DNA from: a virus
Lineage: Duplodnaviria > Heunggongvirae > Uroviricota > Caudoviricetes
Length of the DNA: 6,073 nt
Virus record (IMG/VR): IMGVR_UViG_2706794698_000016
Strand: one strand, 5' to 3'
Shown here: positions 1,348 to 2,773 of the stretch, piece by piece
Position numbering within the stretch: the first letter of the stretch is position 1
Layout of the letters: each line of letters opens with the position of its first letter
Translations under genes and position numbers: made by a program
The notes under the pieces: model-generated
What the model saw: only the letters and a program-made list of their open reading frames with translations
Told to the model about the DNA's origin: nothing
The model's database searches: none

Positions 1348-1492
1348 AACCGCAGCACGTTCCTGCATACGACGTGTCTGCGGCATAATCCCAATGATTA
1401 CTCCCTGACAGGATTTGCAGGCCACTCAATATCAGGTGCAGTTGATGTATCAACACGATTCAACAATACCCGATATTTATTCCATGCCTCCA
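1348..1492. repeat. direct repeat copy A (~145 bp; tfa 3' end plus downstream hairpin)
   Basis: Aligns by eye with 2398-2541 at roughly 85-90% identity with one 1-nt indel (for example CCAATGATTACTCCCTGACAGG and CCACTCAATATCAGGTGCAGTTGATGTATCAACACG are identical in both copies). Confidence 0.8.
1350..1383. other. imperfect hairpin inside repeat A (CCGCAGCACGT ... ACGTGTCTGCGG)
   Basis: 11-nt arms with one bulged T and a 11-nt loop, located 15 bp downstream of the tfa stop on the minus strand. No U-run follows, so it is not a canonical intrinsic terminator. Confidence 0.4.
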
Positions 1493-1667
1493 GCAACGAT
1501 CTTTCTTCCTCCGTTGCGATTTCCAGATCTACAGCATCCTGCAGTGGCGCAATATACTCACTAAATTCCTGGATGTAGAACTGTGTGGTGACGGTCTTCC
1601 AGCCATTCGGCTCCTGCTGTATCGAAGCATACCAGGCTATTTCAATATCGCTATGCTGCGGCAGCAT
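1398..1667 (-). CDS. tail fibre assembly protein, short form (89 aa) with C-terminal Tfa domain
   Basis: Translation ends ...[48 protein letters not shown], the conserved C-terminal motif of phage Tfa proteins. A stop codon lies immediately upstream of the ATG, so it is either a naturally short Tfa or a 3' half with a fortuitous start. Confidence 0.7.
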
Positions 1668-1675
1668 TTAACCCC

Positions 1676-1704
1676 TTGTAATTCATCGCCATAATTGATT
1701 TAAT
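1676..1704 (+). promoter_or_regulatory. candidate sigma70-type promoter for the methyltransferase gene
   Basis: TTGTAA (1676-1681), 17-bp spacer, TTTAAT (1699-1704) in the AT-rich 56-bp gap upstream of the ATG at 1724. Pattern match only. Confidence 0.25.
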
Positions 1705-1723
1705 TCACAAATAAAACTATAAC

Positions 1724-2392
1724 ATGGTGAAATCAATGAAAACAAACACAGATGATGGGGCTAAAATTTACACACCACTTACCCTAAAGCTTTATGACTG
1801 GTGGGTTTTGGGAGTATCAAATCGGCTTGCATGGGGATGTCCTACAAAGGAACACCTTCTTCCACACTTTCTGGAACATTTAGGTAACAACCATCTGGAT
1901 ATTGGTGTTGGAACTGGGTTTTACCTTACTCACGTACCTGAGAGTAGTCTGATATCTTTAATGGATTTGAACGAAGCTAGCCTGAACGCGGCATCTACAA
2001 GGGCTGGGGAATCAAAAATTAAACATAAAATTAGCCATGATGTTTTTGAACCTTATCCCGCGGCGTTACATGGTCAATTTGATTCCATTTCCATGTTTTA
2101 CCTTCTTCACTGCCTGCCTGGAAATATATCTACAAAAAGCTGTGTAATACGCAATGCGGCGCAGGCCTTAACTGACGATGGAACTCTATACGGAGCCACA
2201 ATTCTTGGCGATGGAGTTGTGCACAATAGCTTCGGTCAAAAACTGATGCGCATTTACAATCAGAAAGGCATCTTTTCAAACACAAAAGATTCCGAAGAAG
2301 GCTTAACACATATACTCTCAGAGCATTTCGAGAATGTTAAAACCAAGGTTCAAGGTACTGTAGTAATGTTTTCCGCTTCAGGGAAAAAATAG
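1724..2392 (+). CDS. class I (Rossmann-fold) SAM-dependent methyltransferase, small-molecule/protein type; AT-rich cargo gene
   Basis: 222-aa ORF. Motif I LDIGVGTGFY, acidic end of beta-2 (ISLMDLNE), motif II FDSISMFYLLHCLP, motif III LTDDGTLYGATIL. No DPPY/NPPY-type motif, so it is not an obvious DNA methyltransferase. Visibly AT-rich (about 40% GC by eye). The alternative start at 1736 has a better SD (GGTGA at 1726-1730). Confidence 0.7.
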   Translation: MVKSMKTNTDDGAKIYTPLTLKLYDWWVLGVSNRLAWGCPTKEHLLPHFLEHLGNNHLDIGVGTGFYLTHVPESSLISLMDLNEASLNAASTRAGESKIKHKISHDVFEPYPAALHGQFDSISMFYLLHCLPGNISTKSCVIRNAAQALTDDGTLYGATILGDGVVHNSFGQKLMRIYNQKGIFSNTKDSEEGLTHILSEHFENVKTKVQGTVVMFSASGKK

Positions 2393-2399
2393 CATCCAA

Positions 2400-2432
2400 C
2401 CGCAGCACGTTCTTGCTTAAGACGTGCTGCGG
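2400..2432. other. perfect 11-bp-stem hairpin inside repeat B (CCGCAGCACGT / ACGTGCTGCGG, 11-nt loop)
   Basis: Sits between the convergent methyltransferase gene (stop 2390-2392) and the tfa remnant (stop 2447-2449). The arms are perfectly complementary. Confidence 0.45.
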
Positions 2433-2449
2433 CATAATCCCAATGATTA

Positions 2450-2530
2450 CTCCCTGACAGGGTTCGTAGGCCACTCAATATCAGGTGCAGTTGATGTATC
2501 AACACGGTTCAGCAACACCCGATACTTTTT
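2450..2530 (-). pseudogene. tfa 3' remnant (last 27 codons: [27 protein letters not shown]), fused in frame to the truncated pin remnant
   Basis: Minus-strand translation is nearly identical to the C-terminus of the tfa at 1398-1667. It is preceded by a TAG (2531-2533) that corresponds to the Trp codon of ...LEAWNKYR in copy A. Confidence 0.7.
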
Positions 2531-2533
2531 CTA

Positions 2534-2773
2534 GGCTTCCACCACCAGCACGACAAGATGCCGCATACAGTGCCCCAGTCAGTCCAGTTTTCAGACAACC
2601 AGTGCGTCACCTTTTTGAAGGCGCTTTAAAGCACGTTTTAATCCAGGTCGGCCTGTCCTTGTTCCGCTTAATTTATCTTCAAATATTTGTTCATATCCTG
2701 CACAAACAAGAGCGTTTCGTTGCAGGTCTNNNNNNNNNNNNNNNNNNNNNNNNNNNNNNNNNNNNNNNNNNNN
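2534..2773 (-). pseudogene. pin: Pin/Gin/Hin-family serine DNA invertase, N-terminal remnant (about 85 codons); start lies in masked 2730-2788
   Basis: Minus-strand translation of 2728-2534 is DLQRNALVCAGYEQIFEDKLSGTRTGRPGLKRALKRLQKGDALVV*KLD*LGHCMRHLVVLVVEA. This matches the e14 Pin N-terminus as I recall it (...DLQRNALVCAGCEQIFEDKLSGTRTDRPGLKRALKRLQKGDTLVVWKLDRLGRSMKHLISLVGEL...). In-frame TGA at 2591-2593 (Trp position) and at 2579-2581 (Arg position). Start coordinate 2773 is extrapolated. Confidence 0.8.

Follow-up and report, generated by a model that had tools for sequence, protein, structure and literature searches.

A ybcY methyltransferase cassette between tfa ends in a decayed lambda-like prophage

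In the cryptic prophage DLP12 of Escherichia coli K-12, three consecutive genes are annotated as tfaD, ybcY and tfaX (b0561-b0563), the ybcY being a pseudogene, and the label YbcY has also been given to a gene of the phages PhiR26_1 and PhiR68_2. Two more general models are of interest for such a locus: the moron, in the concept of Juhala and Hendrix, is said to be an independent promoter-gene-terminator unit inserted between conserved phage genes, and Tobe and colleagues are said to have described, in 2006, exchangeable effector loci at the tail-fibre end of the lambda-like prophages of enterohaemorrhagic E. coli (EHEC). The DNA considered here is the IMG/VR virus record IMGVR_UViG_2706794698_000016, a stretch of 6,073 nucleotides (nt), called the window in the following, which is a patchwork with five masked runs of N. 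The window is a ybcY accessory cassette in a decayed lambda-like prophage, located at ompW in a Shigella-type genome; ybcY codes for a putative class I S-adenosylmethionine (SAM)-dependent methyltransferase. Taken as a whole, the explanation developed below, which comprises the identity of the cassette, its architecture and its inferred origin and function, is considered highly probable.

The K-12 locus aligns with window positions 1421-2544 at 97% DNA identity, and by this alignment the K-12 ybcY locus and the window gene, whose relationship was checked as a possible refutation, are homologous. The position of ybcY between tfa ends is thus an ordinary arrangement that is already known from annotation, and the cargo gene pointed out in a preliminary description of the window is not new. 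The two loci share the order and orientation of the three elements and the same promoter hexamers in the spacer between ybcY and tfaX. They differ in that ybcY is a frameshifted pseudogene in K-12 and intact in the window, that K-12 tfaD is nearly full length whereas the window keeps only 95 nt of the right-hand tfa, fused to a pin pseudogene, and that the window prophage lies at ompW/trp and not at the DLP12 site. The gene itself is very common: it is present at ≥95% nucleotide identity in 3836 of the 5426 complete E. coli genomes (71%), in up to 4 copies each and 4882 copies in all, and 821 complete genomes of the species contain the 1.7-kb stretch from 1000 to 2730 with about 99.5% identity. 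Among these, the sequence type 131 strain JJ1887 carries the stretch in a defective lambda-like prophage between the ompW/trp region and tail genes.

The features of the ybcY region, in window coordinates, are listed here.

1348-1397, minus strand: non-coding part of repeat copy A, the 50 nt past the stop codon of the short tfa' open reading frame (ORF), with a terminator-like hairpin.
1398-1667, minus strand: short tfa' ORF, 89 amino acids (aa), chimeric, counterpart of K-12 tfaX, PHROG 2341.
1668-1735, plus strand: AT-rich divergent spacer and ybcY 5' region, with candidate sigma-70 hexamers and the sequence GGTGA (1726-1730) before the ATG at 1736.
1724-2392, plus strand: ybcY-family class I SAM-dependent methyltransferase, intact, 222 aa; the probable start at 1736 gives 218 aa.
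2398-2446, minus strand: non-coding part of repeat copy B, with hairpin B between the convergent ybcY and tfa remnant.
2447-2541, minus strand: coding part of repeat copy B, 31 terminal codons left from a full-length tfa and interrupted by an in-frame TAG (2531-2533).
2542-2729, minus strand: N-terminal fragment of a Pin-type serine recombinase with two in-frame stops, fused to the tfa remnant at 2541/2542.

The evidence for a conserved unit comes from the comparison of this segment in eight loci, namely those of JJ1887, PhiR26_1, 2G7b, K-12, Turner, PhiR68_2, a second S. flexneri locus (L024) and E. albertii. In all of them about 870 base pairs (bp), corresponding to 1563-2432, are 97-100% identical, whereas 1398-1562 and 2433-2541 vary. 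The unit contains the 5' part of the chimeric ORF, the putative promoter region, ybcY and the hairpin that follows it; the homology with Turner, PhiR68_2 and S. flexneri L024 stops precisely at 2432, which is the base of hairpin B. The ybcY alleles show 0-4 differences in 657 nt, and the tfa alleles on either side of this nearly invariant core differ among phages, as would fit recombination in the tfa ends. The simplest reading of these comparisons is that a cassette of about 870 bp has been exchanged among lambda-like phages by recombination in the tfa ends and hairpins. The preliminary description had proposed that the gene was acquired as cargo by recombination at the tfa 3' end; this is right in substance, as indicated by the single-copy relatives described below and by the variable tfa flanks, but the boundaries have to be corrected to 1563-2432.

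The two direct repeats that bracket ybcY find their explanation in the intact phages. Copy A (1348-1495) and copy B (2398-2544), delimited by a repeat search and aligned with MAFFT, have the same orientation and are about 90% identical with one 1-nt indel; a repeat of such length and identity is far beyond chance, and the repeats previously reported at 1348-1492 and 2398-2541 are therefore real, although slightly longer than had been thought. Copy A is made of the final 33 codons of the tfa-type ORF on the minus strand (1398-1667) and of the 50 nt downstream with their hairpin; copy B has the same module, but its tfa frame is broken by the in-frame TAG. In PhiR26_1 and 2G7b, the order along the late strand is J, lom, stf, full-length tfa, ybcY (antisense), the short tfa-like ORF, cargo (a hydrolase or appY, then ompT) and int, and phage ev243 agrees with this order by the features annotated under the match; in intact relatives one hairpin stands between the full-length tfa and ybcY and another one between the short ORF and the cargo. 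From this order it follows that copy B is the 3' end of a functional tfa and copy A the 3' end of the short ORF; indeed, in PhiR26_1 and K-12 the sequence of the coding part of copy B is the 3' end of the complete tfa or tfaD. The repetition is thus due to a Tfa C-terminal coding end with its hairpin that the full tfa and the chimeric small ORF have in common. Lambda, HK629 and HK630, relatives without the insert to which a comparison had been suggested, carry a single copy of the tfa-end and hairpin module and no ybcY, and both window copies map to the same lambda interval; homology to the sequence downstream of lambda tfa stops at 1341.

The short tfa' ORF is matched over its full length by PHROG 2341 (E 4e-61), but by the Pfam Caudo_TAP domain over residues 31-86 only (E 6e-25). 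Positions 1398-1562 code for the Tfa C-terminal domain, of which 1398-1495 lie inside copy A, while 1563-1667 code for an unrelated N-terminus of 35 codons. Residues 3-37 match PHROG 3893, and the first 38 aa have 51% identity with the beginning of a 79-aa ORF found in Klebsiella phages. Since the N-terminal 35 codons are not tfa-like and match this PHROG and the Klebsiella phage ORF, the short ORF is a chimera; for the same reason a tandem duplication of tfa, considered as the origin of the repeat, was ruled out. The element taken at first for a plain tfa 3' end on the left does carry the C-terminal Tfa domain, but the whole ORF is this chimeric 89-aa frame. The Rfam candidate small RNA (sRNA) family IS009 scores 109.9 bits (E 2e-25; gathering score 117) on the short tfa' ORF (1441-1644, minus strand) and less on the tfa remnant (2490-2569, minus strand); the model seems to have been built on tfa-type coding sequence.

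The ends of the repeats are not the boundaries of the insertion. Compared with a full-length tfa, the DNA homology of copy A extends over 215 nt to 1562 and then stops, and the right end of copy B is set at 2541/2542 because the tfa remnant is fused there to the pin fragment, a stretch annotated in JJ1887 as "recombinase family protein, incomplete". The position 2541/2542 is a later deletion junction with a decayed pin gene.

Both repeat copies contain a stable hairpin, with z-scores from -2.8 to -5.6. The stems of hairpin A (1350-1361/1371-1383) give -18.5 kcal/mol on the plus strand and -24.1 kcal/mol on the minus strand, where a terminator-like site with the tail GTTAGTTTGT is predicted; for hairpin B (2400-2414/2419-2432) the values are -23.9 and -28.5 kcal/mol, respectively. 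Five bases (2393-2397) separate the ybcY stop codon from copy B, and the stem of hairpin B begins 2 nt further on, at 2400. On the minus strand, hairpin B (2400-2432) is identical to the 3'-terminal hairpin of Rfam CssrB, the chromosome-encoded Shigella sRNA B, with 32.6 bits, which is below the gathering score; the remaining consensus matches the spacer between ybcY and ipaH of S. flexneri L024 (3675-3725) and not the window. This suggests, from sequence comparison, that in Shigella an antisense transcript may end at hairpin B.

Like a moron, ybcY is an additional gene that separates two blocks which adjoin each other in lambda, HK629 and HK630; it has its own AT-rich candidate promoter region, a hairpin after the gene and a composition unlike that of its flanks, and it is dispensable. 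Unlike a moron, the unit takes in the beginning of another ORF, the chimeric one, and its hairpin has no U-tract on the ybcY strand. The edges of the cassette are formed by the conserved hairpin and the tfa 3' ends, and Shigella ipaH cassettes abut the same hairpin, which supports the view that the site may be a shared docking point for cargo.

The ybcY product matches Pfam Methyltransf_12, 23, 25 and 11 above their gathering scores and, over its full length, PHROG 2132 of unknown function (E 3.8e-156, residues 5-222 on profile positions 1-218 of 218), and it is 99% identical to an E. coli cluster of 6589 members. Across 37 aligned homologues, residue 5 is an invariant Met, so that translation probably starts at 1736, behind GGTGA. 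The same homologues have in common about 55 invariant residues, in a family that spans Gamma- and Betaproteobacteria: these comprise D59, G61, G63 and G65 of motif I (LDIGVGTG, residues 58-65), D81 (LMDLN) and D106 (HDVF), which stand at the ends of the predicted strands E76-81 and E99-104, and the block FDS.S..YLLHCLPG. The canonical class I motifs first read in the sequence are therefore borne out by the Pfam matches of the profile search that had been suggested, by the invariance of motif I, D81 and D106, and by a model with seven strands. The AT-richness attributed to the gene holds in part. The ORF has 41.1% GC against 46.5-49% in its immediate flanks (copy A 47.3%, 1496-1667 48.8%, copy B 49.0%, 2545-2729 46.5%), but it is close to the window mean of 43.3% and to the right-hand tail-fibre genes (42.5-43.1%) and lies above ipaH (39.9%); the AT bias is mild.

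The wider family has 2296 detectable members, whose spread was followed in a collection with one genome per species. Copies with 99% identity are confined to E. coli, Shigella and E. albertii and to some contigs of metagenome-assembled genomes (MAGs) labelled with unrelated taxa. MAG contigs assigned to Bacillus sp. and Planococcaceae have the E. coli ybcY-tfa cassette with 99-100% identity, most likely through contamination or mis-binning. The next relatives are found in Citrobacter (75% identity) and Enterobacter (68%), followed at 50-65% by those of Salmonella, Yersinia (including Y. pestis), Erwinia, Pantoea, Proteus, Pasteurellaceae, Pseudomonas, Xanthomonas, Dyella and Noviherbaspirillum. 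Among 80 species loci checked for adjacency to tfa, only the copies with at least 99% identity adjoin it; the homologues that reach no more than 75% identity stand singly on the chromosome, in neighbourhoods unrelated to each other, and no tfa lies closer than 3 kb. The Enterobacter chromosomal homologue has 72% DNA identity, in an alignment that begins 33 nt upstream of the ATG. Judged from this distribution, ybcY is evidently a host chromosomal gene captured by a phage.

A plausible course of events can be reconstructed as follows. A chromosomal methyltransferase gene, together with part of its upstream region, would have been captured from an Enterobacter- or Citrobacter-like bacterium behind the terminator of a tail-fibre operon. 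One illegitimate crossover between the neighbouring small gene and the middle of the tfa of another phage may then have generated both the chimeric ORF and the repeat, and homologous recombination in the tfa ends and hairpins, which are conserved, would later have spread the cassette. In the window prophage, a subsequent deletion would have joined the right-hand tfa end to the pin fragment.

Expression and dispensability can be approached through K-12 and one phage. The spacer 1668-1723 has 26.8% GC, and a consensus scan found the candidate hexamers TTGATT (1695-1700) and TATAAC (1718-1723) with a 17-nt gap, as well as the alternative pair TTAACC (1668-1673) and CATAAT (1690-1695). The K-12 spacer between ybcY and tfaX is a binding site of the RpoD holoenzyme in vitro, with TTGATT-17-TATAAC assigned to ybcY, and H-NS is also listed there (Shimada et al. 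2014, PMC3946193); the same hexamers and gap are present unchanged in the window. Thus, ybcY would be transcribed alone from the predicted sigma-70 promoter in the AT-rich spacer, and this transcription is probably damped by H-NS. Phage Ayreon (L012, 2888-3185), which grows on K-12, lacks window positions 1695-2356 through a clean internal deletion of ybcY; it keeps the promoter edge, the last 36 nt of the gene and hairpin B, and is without a full-length tfa upstream. This deletion, together with the frameshift of K-12 ybcY, indicates that the gene is not needed by the phage. YbcY would have no part in virion formation, and any benefit would go to the lysogen.

In the AlphaFold (AF2) model of the protein, which is confident (pLDDT 90.7), the class I fold has seven strands and a helical lid at the N-terminus, and residues 1-13 are disordered. 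The best Foldseek match is the bacterial phosphatidylethanolamine N-methyltransferase PmtA (8ys9), and further structural matches are insect juvenile-hormone acid methyltransferase (JHAMT, 7ec0), Plasmodium phosphoethanolamine methyltransferase (PMT, 3uj7), UbiG (4kdr) and MM_2633 (3dtn); identity to these five is 12-21% with a template modelling (TM) score of about 0.6, and no family stands out. A sequence search with the ybcY protein did not recover PmtA, a search of PDB sequences gave nothing decisive on the family, and the best NCBIfam match, with 17 bits where the cut-off is 180, allows no assignment. YbcY is predicted to be a soluble or membrane-peripheral enzyme that would bind SAM via D59-x-G61-x-G63-x-G65, D81 and D106, with the methyl acceptor held under the N-terminal helical lid. 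On the model, this acceptor is probably a small molecule, possibly lipophilic. Since the best structural match is a PmtA-type enzyme and the N-terminal helix is rich in Trp, YbcY might serve lysogenic conversion by methylating a small molecule of the host or an envelope lipid, a suggestion put forward tentatively and regarded as unlikely.

Other explanations concern the origin of the repeats and the role of the protein. The same orientation of the repeats, the tightness with which they bracket a single gene and the start of copy B 5 nt past the stop codon could point to a target-site duplication, left behind when the methyltransferase gene inserted like a transposon or at a specific site. Such an origin is scarcely credible, and was rejected, in view of the length of the repeats (147-215 nt), their identity of only about 90% and the absence of any transposase, integrase or terminal inverted repeat within 1496-2397; in addition, the two copies carry different tfa alleles in different phages, the left one belongs to the chimeric ORF, and in several contexts the hairpin alone is repeated and not the tfa coding part. 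As to the enzyme, DNA methyltransferases are frequent in phages, and YbcY might act on nucleic acids, either on DNA in anti-restriction or epigenetic functions or on tRNA or rRNA. However, direct reading of the 222 aa shows neither the (D/N)PP(Y/F/W) nor the PCQ...ENV motif, the 218-aa protein has no target-recognition or RNA-binding extension in the model, and its motif IV, FDS.S..YLLHCLPG, is of the type of Methyltransf_11/12 enzymes; the PADLOC match is negligible (E 0.0034), the top Foldseek matches are lipid and small-molecule enzymes, and in the neighbourhoods examined the chromosomal homologues stand alone with no restriction partner. A nucleic-acid substrate is thus quite unlikely. The preliminary description had also speculated on a secreted effector or host-modifying enzyme, that is, on a Shigella type III effector acquired together with the neighbouring ipaH. 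Indeed, ybcY adjoins ipaH at the tail-fibre end of a lambda-like prophage, ipaH directly follows the ybcY hairpin also in S. flexneri L024, and the disordered residues 1-13 might be compatible with secretion; the likeness to the EHEC loci lies in the position downstream of stf/tfa and in the ipaH of the next slot, here and in L024. On the other hand, ybcY shows none of the tested hallmarks of an effector. The gene is common in E. coli without a type III secretion system, the 71% of complete genomes that have it at ≥95% identity include K-12 lineages, and it is found in phages grown on K-12; homologues are chromosomal in Enterobacter, Proteus, Pseudomonas, Dyella and others, many of them non-pathogens. 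Within the protein, the residues from 16 on are invariant parts of the fold and the first four are probably untranslated. No MxiE box was found in the unmasked window at ≤3 mismatches, 1668-1735 being fully readable, while in S. flexneri L024 the box GTATCGTTTTTTTACAG stands after the ybcY hairpin and before ipaH. The effector speculation finds no support and is extremely improbable.

It is also conceivable that ybcY has no function, being a recently spread relic silenced by H-NS and kept only by its linkage to the recombination-prone tfa ends. This agrees with the frameshift in K-12 and related strains, with the deletion in the viable phage Ayreon, with the H-NS listed at the K-12 spacer and with the abundance of pseudogenes in the surrounding prophage; moreover, the alleles are near-identical and in many pairs the non-synonymous changes equal or exceed the synonymous ones. 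Against it, the ORF is intact in the great majority of cases (the full-length cluster of 6589 members and all eight alleles examined except those of K-12 type), and in the window it is intact although the adjoining tfa, pin and DUF4376 genes are broken. The conservation of about 55 invariant residues across Gamma- and Betaproteobacteria further argues that the enzyme itself would be functional. A functionless passenger is therefore rather doubtful. Several results weigh against the preferred explanation, that of a captured and exchanged gene for a small-molecule methyltransferase. No intermediate with ybcY beside an intact PHROG-3893-type gene was found, and the order of events is a reconstruction; on the ybcY strand no U-tract follows hairpin B, which is thus a putative terminator of the gene; and in six chromosomal homologue neighbourhoods there is no conserved partner gene or other clue to a pathway. 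The searched literature, whose coverage left out subscription journals, contains no functional study, substrate, phenotype or expression measurement for any member of the family, and its mentions of ybcY are incidental: in two papers the gene figures only among mutants that had no effect or within a larger deletion. Finally, with 0-4 differences the dN/dS comparison of phage-borne alleles is uninformative on purifying selection, several pairs having non-synonymous changes only, and ybcY could be a neutral passenger.

Several further elements lie around the cassette. Downstream of hairpin A, a DUF4376/tail-fibre-like gene fragment with an internal stop (1023-1394, minus strand) matches PHROG 1141 and 7703, is annotated as a pseudogene in JJ1887 and is further prophage debris. 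Further to the left, 104-219 (minus strand) code for an OmpW-like C-terminal fragment, part of the attachment-site region of the JJ1887 prophage, and positions 1-103 are presumably an IS1 end that cuts this fragment. To the right, the ipaH of the window (2789-3474) has a frame that cannot exceed about 297 codons before the tail-fibre sequence starts again at 3726, and it is therefore truncated. The L024 ipaH (3710-4635), a 99.7% identical copy, lies directly after the ybcY hairpin with a perfect MxiE box; the corresponding part of the window, 2730-2788, is masked. Taken together, the two loci show that ipaH and ybcY are neighbours at two different junctions. The region 3726-5994 contains two convergent pairs, each made of a tail-fibre C-terminus and a tfa:

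3749-4360 with 4513-5046, plus strand: tail-fibre C-terminus and tfa, convergent pair 1.
5075-5442 with 5703-5994, minus strand: tail-fibre C-terminus and tfa, convergent pair 2.

These pairs resemble the invertible tail-fibre segment of G/P type, and 3726-4344 match JJ1887 in the opposite orientation; the segment is probably locked in its orientation, since the pin gene next to it is reduced to a pseudogene fragment. At the right end, an ORF from 6033 that starts MSRKTQRYSKEFK runs off the window at 6073; it resembles the start of orfA of an IS3-family element such as IS600.

For the most part, the analysis re-identifies the long-annotated ybcY and the ordinary mosaic tail-fibre end of lambda-like phages. 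The gene is nevertheless a very widespread prophage gene of E. coli, and its descent from a chromosomal enzyme family conserved in Proteobacteria is clear. If the lysogenic-conversion role were true, the envelope properties of the lysogen, its susceptibility to phages or its fitness could change, and this would explain the sweep of a near-invariant 870-bp cassette, intact among pseudogenes, through the lambda-like prophages of most E. coli and Shigella.

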